Origin: Sphyrna mokarran
Lineage: Eukaryota
Length of the DNA stretch: 64,000 nt
NCBI GenBank assembly: GCA_024679065.1
Contig: JAGIQG010000013.1
Span: forward strand, 76,384,001 to 76,448,000
Direction: 5' to 3'
This document shows, piece after piece, positions 6,736 to 62,704 of this stretch; positions within the stretch are counted from its first letter, which is position 1, and the number at the start of each line of letters is the position of its first letter. The notes under the pieces are model-generated. The model made no database searches, was not told the origin of the DNA, and was given only the letters and a program-made list of their open reading frames with translations. The translations under genes were made by a program, and so were the position numbers.

Positions 6736-7068
6736 TGAAGATGTTAATATATTGTTCCAGGCGTTTTGCCATCTTGTGAAGATGCTAATATATCGCTTCT
6801 GGATTCAGCACTGTCTTGTGAAGATATTAATATTTTGCTCTGGATTCAGTACTGTCTTGTGAAGATATTAATATATCGTTCCTGGATACAGTACTGTCTC
6901 ACGAAAATATTAATATATTGCTTCTGGATTCAGTATCGTCTGTGAAGATATTAATATATCGTTTCTGGATACAGTACTGATGGGAAAGTTGCCTATGTAT
7001 CATTCCTGGATGCAGTACTGTCTTGCAAAGATACTGTTGGCCTGTCACTTCCTGGTTCGGAATCTGTC
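6736..7068. repeat. 41-42 bp tandem repeat, about 8 copies, plus an isolated related copy near 7677-7720
   Basis: Unit TCTTGTGAAGATATTAATATATCGCTTCTGGATTCAGTACTG starting at 6772, 6814, 6855, 6897, 6939, about 6980 and 7021. Confidence 0.9.
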
Positions 7069-11467: not shown

Positions 11468-12075
<608 letters not shown>

Positions 12076-14312: not shown

Positions 14313-14489
<177 letters not shown>

Positions 14490-15990
14490 TCATCACTGAT
14501 ATAAACATGCACGCACATCATAGTGACTATTAGCTAAGTATATCAAAATTTATCCCTGGATAAGTTTTTTTTTCATAGTGTCACAAATAGACTTATATTA
14601 ACACTGCAATGAAGTCACTGTGAAAATCCCTGGGGTGTGTCACTCTGGATTGTATCCCCGACTCACCACTTGGATTTAACAAACTTGCCAAAGAGTTTTC
14701 AACTGAGCTGATTTAAACAGAAAAAGAAATGTATACTCCAGTGCCTGTTTGGATACATTGAGGGAGAATTTAGCATAGCCAATGGTCCCGACACCATAGT
14801 TAAACACCAGTCCAACATACATATGTCACTCTCTGCAGCCCAGCTACCAGATCATACAGAATGTCAGCAACACAGTAGGGGAAAAACCTTCAGAGGACGT
14901 CTGTTTTATCAATTTATTGTGATATCCCTTTGACTCCCTTGTTTGAGAGTTGTTTATCTAGCTTGTCAGGGTCGAGCTTCTCTCCCCTCAGTTTCTGTTT
15001 GCCTTCCATTGTCCATCGCCTCTATCCACCTCCTTGCCTACCATCACAAGTCCCACACCCCCCTGTTTGCATGACCCCCAACGTCTTCACTAGGTAACTG
15101 ACTCTCATCGCCAGCCTCACCTTGCTTGCACTCCAGCCCTGGTCGAAGTTTGGACCTTTGGTGGCTGTCTGAGACCCACAGCACTGTACTGTACGGATAG
15201 ATACTGGTGTGTGACACCTGGGAGGAAGGAGATCCCCAAACCCAGGCAAAGCACTGAACTGGGATGGTGACACAGGAAGGTCTATGGGTCCAACAGCAAC
15301 ACTGCTGTCTGTGAAGACCAGCTTGGCACAGAGATGGAGACAGGTGCTGGAGTGCGCCGACCGAGTGATGGAGAGCAAATCAGCAGCAGTGCAGCACTAT
15401 GGCACTATTGCTTCAAGATCTCTGGTGAACTGAGGGCCATCCACTCTTTAGCAATTGGGTTTGATGCCGATGTGCTTCCTTGCTGGTGGAGGGCCTGGTG
15501 CCACATGGTGGACAACTGTTTTAATGAACATTCACGAGATGCAAACGACATTCGTAGCACCTGCCAGCAGGGGGACTGACCTACCGCCACTGGGAGAATG
15601 GCAACAGGATTTTGCACCGACTGATTTCTGACTTCTTCGCTCCTGCCATACTGGTGCCCGCCTGCCACCAAAGCCACCACAGGTGGGTTGGGGGAATTCC
15701 ACCCACTGAAGGGGCTGAGTGAGGGACATCTAGTCAACTGGAGCTAGATGTCACCAGTAGACCTCTGGAACAAGGCGCTGTATTCCAAGATGATGGCACG
15801 TTGTGGCAAAATATAGGTGAGAAATAGGGAGGGGGAACCCCGGATCAATCCTTGGAGAACGCCAGAGATACCATCAGAAGCACAGGGGGAGAAACATCCA
15901 GGTTCTCTCGGTACACCAGAGGCCACATTTATTGTGATAAGCAGCAATTACCAAATTTGTGTTAGGTTTGTAAAAACATTCAGAACTTAC

Positions 15991-16060
15991 ATAGGAAAGC
16001 AAGAATATTATCAGATTGTGCCACCGTCCCCACCAAAGACATGTAAACAAATGGGCCTTC
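15991..16060 (-). CDS. EBPL: EBPL coding exon 2 (70 nt)
   Basis: ttgcag|EGPFVYMSLVGTVAQSDNILAFL(W)|gtaagt; phase fits neighbouring exons. Confidence 0.96.
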
Positions 16061-17441
16061 CTGCAAGACAATAACAACATCCAATTTAATTAAACAGAAA
16101 ATGCTGGCTAAACTCAGCAGATCTGGCAACGTCCGTGGAGACAAACACTGTTAATGCTTCGTGTCCAAGTGATGCTTTTACAGAACCAAAAAAAGATAGA
16201 AATGTAATGAAATTGGCTGTTGACTGTCGAGGTGAGACGATTAAATTCTCCTGTTAAAGATGATCATTGCTTTCTGTGGCATAAATATTACTTACCATTT
16301 ATCAGCCCAAGCCTGAATATGATCCAGAGTCTGTTACGTATGGACATGGACTGCCATCGGTATAAGGGCTCGCAAATGGAACTGAACATTGTGTGATCAC
16401 CAGTGAATATCCCAACTTCTGACCTTGTGTTAGAGGGAAGTTAACTGAGGAAGTAGCTGAAGATATGTGGGTGGAGGACACTATCCTGAGGAGCCCCTGC
16501 AGCGGTGGAAATAGTGCCGTACAGCAATGTCACTTAAATAATAATCCAGGGCCTATCTAATGTCCTGGGGATATGGGTTCAAATCCTACTGTAGTAGCTG
16601 GTATGCCCTCTCAAACTCTGGAATTTCCTGTCTCAAACTCGCCACCTCTGCACCTTATTTAATCCCTGGAGACCAGGAAAGTTGTCAACTCCCTCGCTCA
16701 GATACAAAGGAAATCTGAAACTTCTAAACCTGTCCATCCAGTTATTTTCAATGGTTTGCAAGCTAAGGTTCCAGAAAATTATTGTCTCTGCAAGGCCAAA
16801 TGTTCTTAAAAGTGCTTGGCTCAATTAACAATAGCCCGGTTGCTGTGTTGGCTACACTGTGGGATCTTGCTGCGTCAATTAGCTGTAGTATTTGCCATAT
16901 TAGAAAAACGCTCGGACTGCTTAAGTGTGTGCAACCCTGTAAAAAAATCACACACTGAAATGTGATGAATGTATATAGTTTTTGGAAGAACTGAACTGTA
17001 ATGTATTGAATTGATACTATGAAACCAAAAGAGAAAATGCTGTAAAATCTCAGCAGTTCTGGCAGCATCTCTAAGGAGAGAAAAGAGCTGACGTATGAGT
17101 TTTTTGCTCTGTTTGTAATGATTGAAAATGTTGTTTCAGCAATGATATATTTCAGAGTATTTATGAATAAAGTATATCTTTGAAATAATTTTTTCCTACA
17201 TTATAACACTTGACCACATCTTAAAACTCTTAATTGCCTGCAAGGCATTGGGATCTTCCCAGGGTTAGAAAAGCCGCTTTATAAATGCAAGTTCTTTCTT
17301 AATAAGCACACAGTTGGGTGGATTTTTATCCTATCTTTCCCCTTATGCTGTAGATTCGTGTTTTTATATGAAATGTTGAAAGACAGCCCGAAGATTAACT
17401 GGGTTTAATGCAACAAAAGAAGGAGAGAGGGTTTTACTCAC

Positions 17442-17648
17442 CAGAGTGAAATGCACGATGGCATCGTAGAAGAGCCAGGTCAGGAGTGCCCGCTCCAGAG
17501 GTGGGCAGCCCTGCCCGAAGCGCAGAGTCAGTGCCCAAGCCAGAGGCACCTGAGCGGCGCAGAGCAGCAGCGGGCAGAGCGCTGCCCAGCTCAGCAGCCC
17601 GGCCATCCCCGCACCTCCACTCCGCTCCCCAGAACTGTTCACATCCAT
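17442..17648 (-). CDS. EBPL: EBP-like protein, coding exon 1 (start at 17648 or at in-frame ATG 17606)
   Basis: Translates (MDVNSSGERSGGAG)MAGLLSWAALCPLLLCAAQVPLAWALTLRFGQGCPPLERALLTWLFYDAIVHFTL, matching the EBPL W..YDA.VHF motif; donor GTGAGT follows on the minus strand. Confidence 0.93.
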
Positions 17649-17896
17649 CCCATAACTAACCCTGGGCGGGACCAGCTACTGACATCCACAACCAAGAGCT
17701 CTTCTCATCTTCTTCACACTCCGACTTCCACACTTCTGCTGGAACATTATTTGGAGCAGTATTAATTCTATCAATCCATTTGATCACACCTTTCCCCTGC
17801 AGGAACTCCCCTTAACCAGCATCTACCATCTAGTGGCCGCATCCAGTATTACAGCCGCTGTATCACCAGCCCAGGGTTAAACCTACCGTTTGCTAC

Positions 17897-19389
17897 GCCC
17901 CTGGCGGCGGGCTCCGGGGGTTCAGGGTGATTTGCTGCCCCTGGTGGCGGGCTCCGGGGGTTCAGGGTGATTTGCTGCCCCTGGTGGCGGGCTCCGGGGG
18001 TTCAGGGTGATTTGCTGCCCCCGGGTGGCGGGCTCCGGGAGTTCAGGGTGATTTGCTGCCCCTGGTGGCGGGCTCCGGGGGTTCAGGGTGATTTGCTGCC
18101 CCTGGTGGCGGCTCCGGGGGTCAGGGTGATTTGCTGCCCCGGTGGCCTCCGGGTTCAGGGTGATTTGCTGCCCCTGTGGCGGGCTCCGGGGGTTCAGGGT
18201 GATTTGCTGCCCCTGGTGGCGGGCTCCGGGGGTCAGGGTGATTTGCTGCCCCCTGGCGGGCTCCGGGTCTCAGGGTGATTTGCTGCCCCGGTTGGCTCCG
18301 GATCTCAGGTGATTTGCTGCCCCCGGATGGCGGGCTCCGGGAGTTCAGGGTGATTTGCTGCCCCCGGATGGCGGGCTCCGGGATCTCAGGGTGATTTGCC
18401 CCCTGGTGGCGGGCTCCGGGATTTCAGGGTGATTTGCTGCCCCCGGGTGGCGGGCTCCGGAGTTCAGGTGATTTGCTGCCCCGGGTGGCGGGCTCCGGGA
18501 GTTCAGGGTGATTTGCTGCCCCCGGGTGGCGGGCTCCGGAGTTCAGGGTGATTTGCTGGCGCTGGCTCCCCGGAGTTCAGGGTGATTTGCTGCCCCTGGT
18601 GGCGGGCTCCGGGGGTTCAGGGTGATTTGCTGCCCCTGGTGGCGGGCTCCGGGGGTTCAGGGTGATTTGCTGCCCCTGGTGGCGGGCTCCGGGGGTTCAG
18701 GGTGATTTGCTGCCCCCTGGTGGCGGGCTCCGGGAGTTCAGGGTGATTTGCTGCCCCTGGTGGCGGGCTCCGGGGGTTCAGGTGATTTGCTGCCCCTGGT
18801 GGCGGGCTCCGGGGGTTCAGGGTGATTTGCTGCCCTGGTGGCGGGCTCCGGGGTTCAGGGTGATTTGCCCTGGTGGCGGGCTCGGGGGTTCAGGGTGATT
18901 TGCTGCCCCGGGTGGCGGGCCCCCGGGGTCAGGGTGATTTCTGCCCCTGGTGGCGGGCTCCGGGTCAGGGTGATTGCTGCCCCGTGGCGGTCCGGGTTCA
19001 GGGATCCCCGGTGGGGGTCCGGGATCTCAGGGTGATTTGCTGCCCCCGGATGCGGGCTCCGGATCTCAGGGTGATTTGCTGCCCCGGGTGGCGGGCTGAT
19101 CTCAGGTGATTTGCTGCCCCCGGATGGCGGGCTCCGGGATTTCAGGGTGATTTGCTGCCCCTGGTGGGGCTCCGGGATCTCAGGGTGATTTGCTGCCCCC
19201 TGGTGGCGGGCTCCGGGATCTCAGGGTGATTTGCTGCCCCCGGGTGGCGGGCTCCGGTAGTTCAGGGTGATTTGCTGCCCCCGGGTGGCGGGCTCCGGGA
19301 GTTCAGGGTGATTTGCTGCCCCCGGGTGGCGGGCTCCGGGAGTTCAGGGTGATTTGCTGCCCCCGGGTGGCGGGCTCCGGGAGTTCAGG
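17897..19389 (+). repeat. GC-rich minisatellite, 40-41 bp unit, about 37 copies
   Basis: Unit CCCC(C)TGGTGGCGGGCTCCGGGGGTTCAGGGTGATTTGCTG repeated head-to-tail with variants. Confidence 0.97.
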
Positions 19390-19445
19390 CTGTGGAACAT
19401 TCTGTAGTCTCCTCGGCGGCGGGCGGGGCGGAGCTGAGTAGCGCG

Positions 19446-19514
19446 ATGGCGGACAGCAGTGGCGCCGAGAATCACCGCATCAAAAGCTTCAAGAACAAGG
19501 GCCGCGATGTGGAG
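19446..19514 (+). CDS. KPNA3: Importin subunit alpha (karyopherin alpha 3), exon 1
   Basis: MADSSGAENHRIKSFKNKGRDVE|gtgagc; ENHRIKSFKNKGRDVE matches KPNA3 rather than KPNA4; EBPL is its known neighbour. Confidence 0.96.
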
Positions 19515-19811
19515 GTGAGCGACCCGGGGAGGAGAGGCATAGGGCGGCAGTGGGTGCCAGTTTCAGTCTCTCTGAGCCTGGGAGCCGCGGCCCAGCGAGT
19601 TGGTTGTCGCCGGCCGAAGCCGGGAATAGCGAGTCCTCCCCGCCCGGGGCCTGGGATCAGGCTGCCCGCCGCAATCAGGCCCGAGGCCGCCGCTGCCGTT
19701 CTACTGCCAGGAACCGACACCCGGTCCGAGAATCGGGGGAAGAGGGAGGAGGAGGGGGGTGGTCGCGTCCAACTCGGAACCCCCTACCAACCGAACCCCC
19801 ACTTGGGGACT

Positions 19812-21760
19812 ATCCACCCGTCCCCGACCCCCCCCCACCCCGTCCCCGACCCCCCCCCACACCCGTCCCCGACCCCCCCCCACACCCACCCCCACCCACC
19901 CCACCCACCCCCCGTCCCCGACCCCCCCCTCACCCCCCCCACCCCCCACCCCCCCCCCCTCCCCCCACCCCCCCCGTCCCCGACCCCCCCTCACCCCCGT
20001 CCCCGACCCCCCCCCTCACCCCCCCCTCACCCCGTCCCCGACCCCCCCTCACCCCGTCCCCGACCCCCCCCTCACCCCCGTCCCCGACCCCCCCCTCCCC
20101 CCGTCCCCCCCCCCCCCCCTCACCCCCGTCCCCCCCCCCCCCCCCCCCCCACCCCCCCCGTCCCCGACCCCCCCCCTCACCCCCGTCCCCGACCCCCCCC
20201 TCACCCCCGTCCCCGACCCCCCCCCCTCACCCCGTCCCCGACCCCCGTCCCCGTCCCCGACCCCCCCCCTCACCCCCCCCCCCCCCCCCCTCACCCCCGT
20301 CCCCCCCCCCCCACCCCCGTCCCCGACCCCCCTACCCCCGTCCCCCGTCCCCGACCCCCTCGCCCCCCGTCCCCGTCCCCCCGTCCACCCGCGTACCTCG
20401 CCCCCCGTCCCTCGCCCCCCCACCCCCGCCCCCCGTCCCCGCCCCGCCCCCCCCCGTTCGCCCCCCCTCGCCCCCGTCCCCGTTCGCCCCCCCTCGCCCC
20501 CCGTCCCCGTTTCGCCCCCCCCCCCTCTCGCCCCGTCCCCGTTCGCCCCCCTCGCCCGGGCCCCCCCCCGCCCCCCCTCGCCCCCCTCCCCGCCCCCCTC
20601 CCCCCCCCGTTCGCCCCCCCTCGCCCCCGGTCCCCGTTTCGTCCCCCCGCCCCCCGTCCCCGTTCGCCCCCCGTCCCCGTTCCCCCCCCCGCCCCTCCCC
20701 GTCCCCTCCCCGTCCCGTCCCCGTTCCCCGTCCCCCCCCCCCCCCCCCCCCCGTTCCCCCCCCCCCCCGTCCCCGTTCCCCCCCCGCCCCCCCTCCCCCC
20801 CCCCCCGCCCCCCCGTCCCCGTTCCCTGCCCCCCCGTCCCCGTTCCCCCCCGTCCCCCCCCCCCCGTCCCCGTTCCCCCCCGTCCCCGTTCCCGTCCCCG
20901 TTCCGTCCCCGTTCCCCCCCCGTCCCCGTTCCCACCCCGTCCCCCACCCCGGCCCCATCCCCTTCCCTCCCCCCCCCCCCGTGCCCCCCCGTTCCCCCCG
21001 CCCCCCCCCGCCCCCACCCGACCCCCCGCTCCCCCCCCCCCCCCCCCCCCGCCCCCCCCCGCCCCCACCCCCCCCCCCCCCGCTCCCCCCGCCGCCCCCC
21101 GTCTCCCCCCCCCCCCGCCCCCTCCCCCCGTCCCACCCCCCCCCCGCCCCCCCCCGTACCCCGTCTCCCCCCCCCGCCCCCCCCCCGTCTCCCCCCCCTC
21201 CCCCCCCCCACGCCCCCGCCCCAGCCCCCAGCCCCCGCGTTCCCCCCCGTCCCCGCCCGCCCCCCCCCGTCTCCCCACCCCCTCCCCCCCCCCCTCCCCA
21301 CCCCCCGCCCCACTCCCCACCCCCCCGCCCCCACCCCCCCCCCCGTCCCCCACCCCCCCCCACCCCCCCCGTCCCCCCCCCCCCCCCCCTGTCCCCGCCC
21401 CCGGTGCTCCCCCCCCCCCCCCCCCCCGCCCCCCCGTCCCCCCCCCACCGCCCCCCCCCCCGTCCCACCCCCCGCCCCCGCCCCCCGTCTCCCACCCGCG
21501 CCCCCCCCCCCCCCGTCTCCCCACCCCTTCCCCCACCCCCCGCGTCTCCCCACCCCCCGCCGCACCCCCCCCCCACCACCCCCCCGCCGCTCCCCCCCCC
21601 CGCCCCCCCCGCCGTCTCCCCCCCCCCGCCCGCCCCCCCCCGCCCCCGTCCTCTCTGCCCCACCCCCTCGTCTCCCCACCCCCCGCCCGCCCCCCCGCTC
21701 CCCACCCCCCCCCCGTCCCCTTTTCTCCCCACCCACTACCCCCCCCCCTCTGACCCCCGA
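19812..21760 (+). repeat. C-rich degenerate tandem / low-complexity tract
   Basis: Units like CCCCGTCCCCGACCCCCCCCTCA, then CCCCGTTCGCCCCCCCTCG, degrading into C-runs; very strong strand asymmetry. Confidence 0.9.
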
Positions 21761-24208
21761 CTCCTCCTTGAATTCCTCCTCAACCAATACCCTGAAAGTG
21801 GACCCCACGGTTGGGGAGATTGGGAGGCCCTCAGTCACCTTCACTCTCCTCACCCCCTTCTCAACCTTACTCCTCCTGCTGTCACTCCCCTTACCCCCCA
21901 ACTCCTCCATGCTCATTCTTGACCCACTTTCACCACTCTCTATGACCCTCCTTCTTGTACCCCCCCTCCTCCCCCAGTCCCATTGGGGAGAGAGAGTGGA
22001 ATAGCTTTAAAAGTAAAACGGTTGGTGAATTTGGGTGGTGATTGCCCACATTTTGGATAGTGAGTTCCTATTGATGCCAGAACAAGTTCGTTCATTGACT
22101 TTCATTCATTGACTTTTGTTCATTCCCACTAGGGGGCTAGAACACCGTACCCAGGTTGAGGTACCTTGTATTTGTACAGTGAAAGCTTCACCTGTTAACT
22201 GGTAACTTGAGTGGACAATTGCTGCAAATGCTGTCCTGTCCTTATGGAGACCTGCTCAGTTGGCTGAACATGTTTGATGAATGTATTTAGTAAATACAAT
22301 GTAAATGTAGATTCAGTATGGATGTCATGCACAACTTGCTGTGTTGCATTTCACAAAGTGTAAGGAAGTTGTAAAGCTCTTGAACAGAAAACACTAGCAT
22401 TAGGATGTCTGCAATTTTGTTTGTTTTTGGGTGGTGAGCATAGTTGGTAAGGCCAGAGTTTGTTGCCATTCCAAATTCTCCTTGAGCTTTCTTGAAATGT
22501 TATGTGGGATATACCCTTCAGTGTTGTTAGGGAGTTCCAGGATTTTGACCTGGCAAACAGTGAGTCAGGTTGGTATGTAATTTGAAGGGAATTTGCAGTA
22601 GGTGGTGTTCTCAGGTCTGCTGTGCTTTTAGGTGGTGGAGATTTTAGATCTAGAGGTATTGGCAAGTCGCTGCAATGAATCTTATAGATGGAACACATTG
22701 CTGCAATTGTGTGCCAGTGGTGAAGGGAGTGACTATGTAAAATGGTCGATGCAGCGTTGGTCAAGTCGGTGGCATTGCCCTGGATGATGCTGAGCTTCTT
22801 GAGTATTGTTGGAGCTGCATTGATTCAGATAAATAGAGAGTATTCTGTCACACTTCTGTGACCTGTGCCTCATTAGATGGCAAATAGGTTTTGGGGAATC
22901 AGGAGGTGAGTTGCATGCAGTAAATTCCTGGCCACCATATTTATGTCACTGGGCTTTGTTCAGTGTCTGGTCAATGGATACCTGACCTCTGCATGGACTG
23001 AATCCATAGTTTACTTATCAGCTTCTTCCCTTCAAGAACGCGTTACTTAGTTTGGAACAATTAAACTCTAACCTTTAAAGAATTAACCTATTACATATTG
23101 TGGTATGATATTCCTAATCCTGCAAAATAGGGCATCTTTGATTTAGTGAGCAGGTCTCAGCATGTGCAAATGAAAGATGGTTTATACGAATTGTAGGTCC
23201 AAAAAGAAAAGTCTTGAGAAAAATGTTTTGTTCTGTGCATCTGACCTGGAGTCAAACTGAGGAGCATGTTACAATTCATAAAGTTCTCTGATTAAACAAC
23301 ACTTCAAATTTGAGTGTAGTTAACAGCAATTAGCTTTTGTGGTCCTAAAGATGCACTGTCCATTAGCAGGATAATATTGCTGTTCTCAAAAATGTATTTT
23401 CAAATGTTGTTTTGTTAAGTATAGAGTCTCAACCCTTAATGTCTTGCAAGTTACAGCTTTGTCTTTAAAAAGGAGGTTGTTTGGGTACGCGTGTGACTTC
23501 AAGGAAATGTAAAATCTCTTATCCATTGTTTAAATAGCAGTAATAGACTTTATGGCCTTAGAGGTGTTTAATTCTGACAGCACAGTACTCAGGGAGGATA
23601 TATTGCTGTAGAGGGGGTACAACACATTAGACTGAGACTGGAGATACGAGTTAAAATATGAGGACAAGTTGCATAGACCAGGCACGTATTCCTTTGTATA
23701 AATGGATTAATAATGATGCAAGTTAAGTTTAAGTTGATTAAAGGAGTTGATAAGGCAAACACAGAAAAAGGGGAGTCCAGAACAAAGGGATGTAATCTGA
23801 AATTAGATTTGATGCTTCAGGAATGATTTCAGGAAACAATTCTTTACATAACAGATTCTGAAAACCTGAAACACTCTCCCAAGAAGTAGTTGAGGCTGGG
23901 GGTCAACTGAAAATTTCACAAGTGCGATTGATAAATATGTCAGATAATGTTATTATGGGCTCTTGAATCAAGAAATGTGAATGGAGTTGATTTACAGGTC
24001 AATCATGAGGTGAATGACAGTAGTTCAAGAGACTGAGTTCCATGTTTCAAAAGGAAACTAGGTTGTTCTTGGATGATAATTCTCCTGTCCTTGTTTAGAA
24101 GTATCTTGTTTGACATACTGTGAACATGCCATGGGAGATCTCATTTTACTGCTGGAGCAATTTGTCGAGCAAGATGATTAATTCTGGCTGCTACCTCTTC
24201 TGTTTCAG

Positions 24209-27954: not shown

Positions 27955-30900
27955 GAACATACAAATTTGGAGCAAGAATAAGCTCCTCAGCCCTTCATGG
28001 CTGATTTAATGATTTAACTTCAATGCCACATTCCCACCTATCCCTGAATATTTTTCACTCTCTCCTACATATCAAGAATCTGTTGAGATCTACCTTAAAG
28101 ATATTCAAACTCTCTTTCCACTGCCTTTTGAGGAAGAGAGTTCCAGTCCCCCGCAAGAGGAAAAAAAATCCTCATTTGTCTTAAATCGGTGACCCCTTAT
28201 TTTCAAACAGTGACTTCCAAAACTAGATTCTCCACGTTTCAATCAAGTCACCTCTTACTCTTCTAAACTCTAGTAGATACAAGGCCAGCTTGTCCAACCT
28301 CAAAAGATATCCCTTCCATTTGAGGTATTCATCGAGTATACCTTATTTGAATTGCTTCCAATGTATTTATATCCTTTGTTAAAGAAGGAGATTGATGCTG
28401 AAGACAGTACTCCAGATGTGGCATCACCAGAGCTCTGTATAACTGAAGTACAGTGTCCATATTTGTATATTCAATTCTCATCACAAATTATAACACACTA
28501 TTAGTTTTCAGAATTATTTTCTGTATCTGCAAACTAACCTTCTGCGATTCGCGCTATAATCTTGATTCCTCTGCAATCTCTCACCATTTATACAATGTGC
28601 TTTTTTATTTTTCCTGTCAAAATGGACAATTTCACACTGTCCCACATGATACTGCATTGGCCAGGTCTTTGCCCACTCACTTAACTTGGCTATAATCTCT
28701 TTGTTAGCCTCCGTTTGTCCTCTTCACACTGTACTATCCTATCTTCGTTTGTGTCGCTAACAGATTTAAAATTTATTTATTAGTCACATGGAAGGCTTAC
28801 ATTAACACTGCAAAGAAATTACCGTGAAACTTCCCTAGTTCCTACACTCCAGTGCCTGTTCAGCTCAATGCACCATACCTTTGGTCCCTTCATTAAATCA
28901 TTGATGTAAGTTGTGAAAAATTAAGTCTCCAGCGCTAATTCCTATGTCACACCACTCATTATATCTAGCCAACCAGAAAATGTCCCTTTTAACCCTACCC
29001 TCAGATTCCTGTTAGCTAGTCAATCTTCCATCCGTGTTATCTGCTACATCATGAGTTTTTGTTTATTAGAATAACCTTTGGTGTACCATTGTGCCTTCTA
29101 GGGTGGAGTGATGGCATAGTGATTAGCACTGCCGCCTCAGTGCCAGGGACCTGGGTTCAGTTCCCAGCTTGGATCACTATCTATGTGGAGTTTGTACATT
29201 CACCCCTTGTTTGCGTGGGTTTCCTCTGGGTGCTCCAGTTTCCTCCCACAGTCCAAAAGACGTGCAGGTTAGGTGGATTGGCCATGTTAAATTCTCCCTG
29301 TGTACCCTAACAGGCTTAAGTCCAATCGATTTATTTGATAGTAAACTCACAAACTTTCCAGGTTCCCCTCTTTGTCAGGTGAATGAAGAGTTCTGGCCTC
29401 AGACAGTACATATAACAGCACAGATACTCGACAGATTACTGATTAATTGCTAATTACTGATTAATCAGTAATTTGTAAACTGTCTTTGCTGTTATATGTA
29501 CTGTCTGAGGCCAGAACTCTTCATTCACCTGACGAAGAGGGGAACCTCAAGCTTGTGAGTTTACTGTCAAATAAATTGGTTAGACTCAAACCTAGTGTTG
29601 TCAGACTTCTTACTATGTTTACCCCAGTCCAATGCCGGCATCTCCACATCCGAACAGGTACCAGAGTGTGGCGACTAGGGGATTTTCACAGTAATTTCAT
29701 TGCAGTGTTAATGTTATTTATGACACTAAGAACTAACCTTTAAACTGGAAGTTCATCTACCAGTTCCCCTTTATCTGCTGCATATATTACTACTTTAAAG
29801 AACTCCAATAAGTTGGTTAAACATGATTTGACTCTGCTCGATTACCCTGACCTTTTCCAAGTGACCTATTATGTCATCTTTATAGCTTCTAACATTTTCT
29901 GTACGACTGATGTGAAGCTAACTGGCCTGTAGATTCCAACTTTTTGGCTCCTGCGCTTTTTAAATAAAGAAATCACGTTCACTATTTTCCAATCTAATGG
30001 AATCTTCACCGAATCTAAGGAATTCTGGAAAATTAAAATCCCTTAGCCTATCTCACTCTCCGTGAAGTACATCAGGATTAGCTCGTGGCCCCTCTTCCCT
30101 GTTGATTGAATCCCGGGTGGGTTCCTGCCTTCCAATTCCTCATTTATAGCTATTTCTGGGGTGTTATTTGTGCCCTCTGTAGTGAGCACTGAATCAAATT
30201 ACCTGTTTGATTCATCTGCCATCTTCTTACTTGCTGTCATTAATTCTTTTGACTCACTTCCTGTAAGATCTGTGGTCACTTTGTTATAAAATATCTATAA
30301 ATCTCAATACTATCTGTCTTTGGAGTATGAAAGAAAGATAGCAGGAAATATGTTTTCCTCCATTTTGTCATTCTTCGCCATTTTTATATCTTGTCCAGTC
30401 TTCTAATGCACCCATCTGGTGCAATTAAATGCTTTTCTTTAATTTTGATACTATGTTTAATTTTTTTTAGTTAACCACAGATGGTGGATCCTTCTTTTGG
30501 AACTTTTTTCTTGTTGGAATGTATCTATTCGTTGTACTCTTAGATATTCTCTTAAATGTCTGCCACAGCATCTCAATTGATCTATCCCTTAACCTAATCT
30601 GCTAGTTCACTTTAGCTAGGTGTACTTTCATGTCCTTATAAGTGCCTTTATTTATATTTAAAATATTAATCTTGGATGTATTCTTCTCTTCCTCAAATTG
30701 AATGTAAAATTGAATTATATTATAATCATTGTTACTTTGCGTCACCTTTACTGTGAGATAATTAATTATCCCATTTTATTGCATAGTCTCCTTTCTGGTT
30801 GGTACAAGAACGCACTACTCTAAGAAACTATCCTAAAAATCTTCTATGAATTCCTCATGTAGGCTACTTTGCCCATCTGATTTTTCCCAGTCTATGTGCA

Positions 30901-62393: not shown

Positions 62394-62704
62394 AGTAAGA
62401 ATTCTCACAACACCAGGTTAAAGTCCAACAGGTTTATTTGGTAGCATAAGCTACTAGCTTTCAGAGCACTGCCCCTTCATCGGGTAAGAGGAATTTCAGT
62501 TCACAAACAGGGCATATAAAGACACTAACTTGATGTCTGTGTTGACATACCGTGTTTGTGAACTGAAATGCCACTTACCCGATGAAGGGGCAGTGCTCTG
62601 AAAGCTAGTAGCTTATGCTACCAAATAAACCTGTTGGACTTTAACCTGGTGTTGTGAGAATTCTTACTGTATTTACCCCAATCCAACGCCAGCATCTCCT
62701 CATC
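62394..62704 (+). mobile_element. Penelope-like fold-back element nested in a Deu-type SINE
   Basis: 116-bp inverted arms 62394-62509 / 62553-62668 (2 mismatches), tail to 62704, imperfect TSD TCTT(A/T)GAAAAGT. Confidence 0.85.

Follow-up and report, generated by a model that had tools for sequence, protein, structure and literature searches.

A Minisatellite of Predicted Bipartite CTCF-like Sites between the Divergent EBPL and KPNA3 Genes of Sphyrna mokarran

Results

EBPL and KPNA3 Lie Head to Head

The Sphyrna mokarran window (the whole 64-kb stretch of DNA analysed, to which all positions refer) contains EBPL on the minus strand and KPNA3 on the plus strand, and exon mapping places them head-to-head (Table 1). 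The preliminary description of this DNA had named both genes as flanking the array, and homologues together with the mapped exons bear this out. Four EBPL exons were placed, the first of which is 97% identical to the EBP-like protein of Mustelus asterias. The N-terminal extension of the M. asterias EBPL model aligns at 17606–17685 in a frame other than that of the rest of exon 1; given this difference in frame, EBPL translation probably begins at the ATG at 17606, unless the sequence contains an indel near 17625–17632. The KPNA3 ATG at 19446 opens an importin-alpha exon, eight KPNA3 exons were placed in all, and the named homologues of a later one are karyopherin alpha 3/importin alpha-4.

In a bidirectional promoter, both start sites lie within ~1 kb of each other and share one common promoter; EBPL and KPNA3 have the head-to-head arrangement that such a promoter entails. 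Their start codons are 1797 bp apart (ATG to ATG), and a tandem array occupies 1.5 of these 1.8 kb; 334 bp are left after subtraction of 38 array units. A fused gene model from sturgeon (a named record) has the importin repeats first and the EBP domain second. Because this single unverified model implies a KPNA3-to-EBPL tandem, it suggests that the head-to-head layout is not universal, and the different gene orders in sturgeon and shark could reflect either a lineage-specific inversion or an assembly difference.

Table 1. Positions of genes, array components and CTCF-like sites in the window
Feature	Position	Strand	Properties
EBPL coding exon 1	17442..17648	minus	candidate ATGs 17648 and 17606
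Further EBPL exons	near 15992-16060, 14313-14459, 11471-11713	minus	from exon mapping
Single-copy bipartite CTCF-like site	17821..17853	minus	core 17821-17836, 14.6 bits, p 4e-6; upstream motif 17845-17853, 6/9 at -17
Whole minisatellite	17886..19389	minus (CTCF-like sites)	38 40/41-bp units; one diverged border unit
Diverged left border unit	17886..17926	minus	core score -4.3; CpG at core 2-3; upstream motif 6/9
Array first half, 17 units	17927..18581		G-tail block, ATCT/ATTT-tail block, four AGTT-tail units
Array second half, 21 units	18582..19389		block order as in first half
Third strict-core unit	18391..18428	minus	core 18394-18409, 16.4 bits; upstream motif 18418-18426, 8/9
Best unit, 5-C/T	18702..18742	minus	core 18708-18723, 22.5 bits, p 9e-9; upstream motif 18732-18740, 7/9
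Second-best unit, 5-C/T	19185..19225	minus	core 19191-19206, 22.5 bits; upstream motif 19215-19223, 7/9
Four full-length 5-C/G units adjoining KPNA3	19226..19389	minus	16.3 bits, p 1.6e-6; upstream motif 6-7/9; CpG at core 6-7
Unique spacer, array to KPNA3 ATG (56 bases)	19390..19445	plus	run that we take to be GC-box-like
KPNA3 coding exon 1	19446..19514	plus	GT donor directly after
CTCF core, KPNA3 intron 1	22126..22141	plus	matches strict core, without upstream motif; divergent relative to array

Several other repeats were seen in the window. A 14-nt inverted repeat (17657–17670/17866–17879; 93% complementary, arms 195 nt apart) holds a telomere-like GGGTTA hexamer and flanks the unique stretch on the EBPL side, including the single CTCF-like site. 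KPNA3 intron 1 contains a second, very C-rich repeat of 1.9 kb (19817–21750) with CCCCGT-like units, ragged C runs and a GC content of up to 0.9; it creates spurious proline-rich frames of 700–880 codons, and probably has minus-strand G-quadruplex potential and is poorly polished. An older AT-rich minisatellite lies at 6772–7033 (period 42/83, ~5 copies, 78–87% matches). Two self-complementary elements of ~280 bp (29312–29593 and 62394–62668; 86% and 92% palindromic) have a shape that we take to be MITE-like, and the KPNA3 introns hold many copies of other interspersed repeats.

The Array Is a Minisatellite with Interspersed Unit Types

Tandem Repeats Finder reported the array at 17897–19389, with a period of 40/41, 38.8 copies and 88% matches. 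Splitting at the unit end gave 38 full units (17927–19389) and one diverged border unit (17886–17926), close to the ~37 copies of the preliminary description. The array is a minisatellite, made of head-to-tail units of tens of bases with 69% GC and interspersed variants of at least five types. The string GCTGCCCC(C)(T/G)GGTGGC, previously ascribed to each unit, is intact in 22 of the 38. No further copy of the unit was found in the rest of the 64-kb window, and within that window it does not have the distribution of a dispersed or mobile element.

The tail variants form blocks whose order in the first half of the array recurs in the second (unit shuffle P=0.002; run shuffle 0/1500, both from a post hoc test), and the best-scoring split of the tail string fell one unit later than 18582, at 18622. 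The similarity of the two halves, with 17 and 21 units, hints at turnover or at two alleles; they represent either a true higher-order doubling or the assembler's fusion of two alleles.

Sequence noise in the 38 units, with five unit types drawn from the array as reference, amounted to 79 bases deleted, 1 inserted and 12 substituted. The damage is concentrated in the middle of the array; full length is retained by the four units at its start and the five at its end. This dominance of deletions points to long-read deletion error.

A coding role for the array was rejected: every unit has a stop on each strand, and the long frames rely on indels. The translated frames of the upstream region had no match in other sharks at E<=0.01 (84 candidates). 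An RNA role was also rejected, with 0 Rfam matches in 17000–22500 and a fold of the last four units plus leader at z=+0.98 relative to shuffles. Four plus-strand ATGs in the array (18327, 18368, 19050 and 19124) would open uORFs of 8–19 codons; they arise in GGAT-type units, and three of them read ATGGCGG, as the KPNA3 start does, which is presumably a YY1-like word. At 24 unit junctions (17927–19389) two direct half-sites follow each other, RGKTCA and then GGGTGA, which we take to be nuclear-receptor-like, a candidate alternative ligand site of the array. The plus strand of the array also contains 5–6 non-overlapping patterns of four G tracts.

Array Units Contain CTCF-like Cores in a Single Orientation

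Units were scanned with a reconstruction of the JASPAR CTCF matrix MA0139.1, the column sums of which (908–913) are consistent. With a uniform background, 25 of the 39 units (border unit included) matched this reconstructed matrix at p<1e-4, 11 at p<1e-5 and 2 at p<1e-6; with a 69% GC background, the reconstructed matrix gave 21, 3 and 2 units at the same thresholds. The passing best match per unit is always on the minus strand. Weaker plus-strand positions in the array reached 1e-4 eight times with the uniform background and not once with the GC-matched one. Intact units score 22.5 bits (5-C/T), 16.3 (5-C/G), 12.8 (4-C/T) and 10.7 (GGAT type). Units of the 4-C type are borderline, at p 1.2e-5 (6.5e-5 with the GC-matched background); the GGC of their core is displaced by one base, and their upstream match is the weakest of all types. 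The preliminary description had held that mainly 4-C or GGG units with poor scores and no CTCF occupancy would refute its reading; 4-C and G-type units are indeed the majority, but intact ones score p ~1e-5 and 2e-6.

The strict core CCASYAGRKGGC occurs in three units (18398–18409, 18712–18723 and 19195–19206). Two of these had already been located, near 18711 and 19194; a third proposed near 18247 is a CCGCCAG variant that fails CCASYAGRKGGC, and the unit at 18409 had been overlooked. The core portion of a bipartite CTCF site is thus present by the reconstructed matrix (11/39 units at p<1e-5, and three strict matches). The chance of such scores was assessed on one dinucleotide-shuffled unit, rescanned on both strands with the reconstructed matrix; a single unit is the fair null because all copies descend from one unit. 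The shuffle P was 0.005 for the 4-C type, 0.0008 for the 5-C/G type and 0/20,000 for the 5-C/T type. Units at p ~1e-5 or better are present at both ends of the array. Additive matrices are described as overrating defective cores (PMC10287918).

An Upstream Motif Lies Exactly 17 Bases Ahead of the Core

The optimum for CTCF fingers 9–11 determined by Spec-seq is given as TGCAATCCC (PMC10287918), and in the library design of that study the T of TGCAATCCC sits 17 bases ahead of the core (PMC10287918, supplement). When all offsets between cores were tried, the best offset was exactly -17 in 6/6 unit types. At this position the match is 6/9 in the 4-C type, 7/9 in four types and 8/9 in units with the ATTT tail; position -15 is A in every array unit, where the optimum has C. 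With the core fixed, the other 22 bases shuffled and a single upstream consensus used, P was 0.003 at -17 and 0.006 when -18 was allowed (4-C type: 0.02 and 0.04), and the upstream portion of a bipartite site is thus present as well, within the -17 or -18 spacing. The core and upstream tests are separate, and the product of their P values is ~5e-6 for the 5-C/G type. Among the 11 units with at least 15 bits, seven match 7–8/9 upstream bases, one matches 6/9 and three are out of register through deletions. At five other strong sites in the window, no upstream match exceeded 4/9.

The site, from -17 to +16, plus 8 bases makes up the whole of a 41-bp unit, and each unit would thus be roughly one full, predicted bipartite CTCF-like site. 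The part of the unit that forms the variable tail is the centre of the upstream motif, and each of the four tail variants retains 6–8/9 of the motif's bases. The better tails occur together with the full core. The earlier proposal of an amplified, co-oriented CTCF-like site gains support, as judged from sequence, and is strengthened by the upstream motif at exactly -17.

Core and Tail Variants Are Linked

Of the 38 units, 33 could be classified for C-run and tail, three with ambiguous tails and two with unparsable runs being left out. Five C's were found in 0/14 G-tail units and in 15/19 of the rest (Fisher p=6e-6). When only T-type units with an unambiguous tail were counted, the short run accompanied 13 G tails and one other tail, and the five-C run was without the G tail in 4/4 (p=0.0016). 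The full 5-G run is retained in 12/17 non-A-tail units. Because the G-tail variant lies ~15 nt away from the C-run, the two are linked variants, and an origin of the 4-C units in homopolymer error alone was ruled out. The 4-C/5-C difference is mostly a genuine linked variant, with a residual possibility of long-context basecalling bias. The suspicion of error-prone homopolymers was therefore right as regards the noise of the array and wrong as regards the 4-C/5-C difference, which is tied to the tail; the expectation that re-polishing would turn 4-C units into perfect sites is not supported, given the G-tail counts. If all short C-runs were errors, 28 of the 38 units would reach at least 15 bits, vs 11 as read. 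The commonest exact unit is of the 4-C type, with 7 copies.

The Methylation-Sensitive Core CpG Is Rare in the Array

Strong methylation sensitivity of CTCF binding in vitro is described at core positions 2–3 only (PMC5694663). A CpG occupies these positions in 2 of the 38 array units, one of them badly damaged, and in the border unit; the remaining CpGs of the units are at -9, -2 and, in the G types, +6. The CpG observed/expected ratio is 0.55 in the array, 0.84 in the flank on the KPNA3 side and 0.25 at 22000–64000. The array thus differs from an H19-ICR-type insulator, which has the CpG at core 2–3, and because this CpG is so rare and the ratio is 0.55, an H19-type methylation switch, as had been suggested by the term methylation-sensitive, is not supported by the sequence. 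A partly methylated repeat would fit the ratio of 0.55.

Related Sites in the Window and the Origin of the Array

The separate single-copy minus-strand site reported before the array is present, in the orientation of the array and without a CpG at core 2–3. Its 6/9 upstream match at -17 compares with a window background of 1.1%. Outside the array, 15 matches at p<1e-4 were found in the 64-kb window vs ~12 expected by arithmetic, and the single-copy site alone is near chance for a window of this size. A role for it as parent or old duplicate of the unit was not supported, as similarity outside the motif positions was not significant (P=0.09). Two divergent CTCF-like cores were also seen in EBPL intron 2 (15496–15579; minus at 15496, p 4e-6; plus at 15561, p 6e-5), in a GC-richer, repeat-like stretch and without upstream motifs.

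Descent of the array from a real CTCF site appears quite probable. The parent may have been a strong promoter site that decayed to the 4-C type and the border unit, or a weak site that improved inside the array. The ancestral state may be represented by the border unit, whose core is poor as read (-4.3) and would reach 14.4 if one C were added to its C-run.

Discussion

Unit anatomy, variant linkage, orientation and gene context are direct observations at this locus. The explanation that we prefer, with a probability of roughly 0.5 as a whole, is an amplified bipartite site with CTCF on the 5-C units and a one-way stall of cohesin. A 40–41-bp promoter segment comprising the upstream motif (fingers 9–11), an 8-bp linker and the core (fingers 3–7) would have been amplified in tandem, turnover would have produced interspersed strong (5-C) and weak (4-C) types, and the entire array would probably have doubled once. 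CTCF would occupy a subset of the units, mainly the ~11–15 5-C units, and the flanking single site, facing EBPL. By the convergence rule, minus-strand sites anchor loops running toward EBPL. Occupied units would stall cohesin coming from the EBPL side and make a one-directional loop anchor or boundary within the shared promoter; the plus-strand core at 22126 faces into KPNA3 and, with the array, would give a divergent, boundary-like layout. Methylation, if relevant, would close the array as a block, not via the classical core CpG. Occupancy of at least some units by CTCF in vivo seems rather likely, and a measurable barrier effect of the array somewhat less than an even bet.

The two-part CTCF motif is reported to be in use in lamprey (PMC5504073), shark CTCF to have 11 fingers, with a testis-biased CTCFL in sharks (PMC7471279), and skate TAD borders to show the CTCF orientation bias of loop extrusion (PMC10115646). 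The upstream motif is reported at 13–15% of CTCF sites only and as needed for enhancer blocking at IL3 (PMC12885311). More tandem CTCF sites are described as giving more insulation, with gains that shrink past two sites, and arrays of non-boundary or weak sites as giving none; those tests used 139–180-bp spacing, unlike the 41 bp here (10.1101/2020.07.07.192526, PMC11828424). A bolder version of the explanation, which we regard as unlikely, is that of a selected, allele-tunable CTCF barrier near maximum density, with one 11-finger site per unit, inside a head-to-head promoter that bony fishes lack. Such a barrier would put promoters ~330 bp apart in separate loop domains, its strength would be set by the 5-C/4-C mix and not by length, and its cores would have lost the methyl-sensitive CpG that the border unit retains.

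The array could instead be a neutral passenger, an ordinary, unstable GC-rich minisatellite that picked up the CTCF site of a promoter and has since been decaying or become methylated, with CTCF binding slight or inconsequential; we hold this to be a tenable but lesser prospect. The weak 4-C units are genuine and form the largest class, CpG is depleted in the array relative to its flank (0.55 vs 0.84), and the second GC-rich repeat, 430 bp off and with no link to CTCF, suggests that this island spawns repeats anyway. The CTCF sites of the mouse DXPas34 minisatellite are likewise reported to vary widely among rodents and to be absent in one vole (PMC3149622). Against this reading, all four tail variants hold 6–8/9 upstream bases and a better tail accompanies the full core, and units at p ~1e-5 or better persist at both ends of the array. 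On a further account, the CTCF likeness itself would be an accident of a GC-rich unit, and the length and best units of the array would in part be assembly artefacts. Among the many minisatellites of a genome, some are bound to match a motif; the deletion-dominated noise (79 to 1), the two similar halves that may be joined alleles, and the presence of the strict core in only three units all lend themselves to such an account. It is nevertheless highly improbable, as the core and upstream tests are separate (for the 5-C/G type their product is ~5e-6), full-length units make up the first 4 and the last 5, and the linkage of variants across 15 nt (Fisher p=6e-6, 33/38 units) goes beyond random error.

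A role in tuning the promoter would place the effect on transcription or translation: CTCF or testis CTCFL would set the start or strength of transcription, or the array would form the KPNA3 5' leader, with its ATGs damping translation. The KPNA3 ATG follows the array after just 56 unique bases, and the four array ATGs would supply the uORFs. Clustered CTCF sites are reported to be occupied by CTCF together with BORIS and able to turn into start sites (PMC10832218), testis-biased CTCFL is described in sharks (PMC7471279), and the minisatellite of the INS promoter alters expression via MAZ sites (PMC8282625). The last four units and leader fold no better than shuffles, however, and the literature cited ties the upstream motif to insulators, not to dynamic sites (PMC12885311). 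We consider promoter tuning distinctly improbable.

The amplified-site explanation invites comparison with other repeats. The nearest likeness is DXPas34 in the mouse Tsix promoter region, described as a CpG-rich minisatellite whose 30–34 bp monomers each carry a CTCF site; it is restricted to certain lineages, and local amplification has been proposed as its origin (PMC3149622). The shark array shares the promoter-proximal position, the CpG-rich minisatellite and the CTCF motif in each monomer, but it lies at EBPL/KPNA3 and not at the rodent Xist/Tsix locus; it is like DXPas34 without being a member. The role of DXPas34 is in rodent X-inactivation, and short, loose consensus motifs were used to predict its sites (PMC3149622), whereas the shark unit has core and upstream motif and lies between head-to-head protein-coding genes. 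DXZ4, ICCE and FIRRE are tandem repeats with dense CTCF sites that anchor loops; their units are of kilobase size in DXZ4 (~3 kb) and ICCE, contain up to four motifs distributed over both strands, and are described as bound on the inactive X (PMC6125249). In contrast, the shark unit is 40–41 bp with one co-oriented site, and the array has neither the kilobase unit nor the mammalian X location.

The human HRNR VNTR has a count of predicted two-part CTCF sites that grows with length, with a conjectured effect on folding and neighbor expression; it is an ~8 kb coding-exon repeat with sparser sites, not a promoter repeat with one site per short unit (PMC10234305). The IL3 +2.9 kb and chicken HS4 insulators are described with the core and upstream layout seen here, with an ~8-bp linker (PMC12885311), and engineered tandem CTCF arrays with dose-dependent insulation from 139-bp synthetic units (10.1101/2020.07.07.192526). 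These bipartite insulators and engineered arrays have single or few sites; the shark array has up to 39 natural predicted sites at 40–41 bp. The INS VNTR, like this array, is a GC-rich promoter minisatellite that repeats the site of a zinc-finger protein; its factor is MAZ, its polymorphism and effect on expression are known, and its promoter is not described as head-to-head (PMC8282625). Among the top-ranked results of a literature search, there was no shark report of the EBPL/KPNA3 array. What appears to set the array apart from the cases compared is a unit that is one predicted bipartite site, with co-orientation, linked strong and weak variants, and a place between divergent shark genes.

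Tandem repeats that multiply CTCF sites are already known in mammals. If unbound, the shark array would be a promoter minisatellite of the ordinary sort, whose parent motif can be identified. If bound, it would offer a natural dose series for the occupancy of adjacent footprints and for insulation vs site number and quality, and could be used to test boundary placement within a bidirectional promoter. The birth of CTCF clusters driven by repeats would then extend from transposons and macrosatellites to the minisatellites of cartilaginous fishes.
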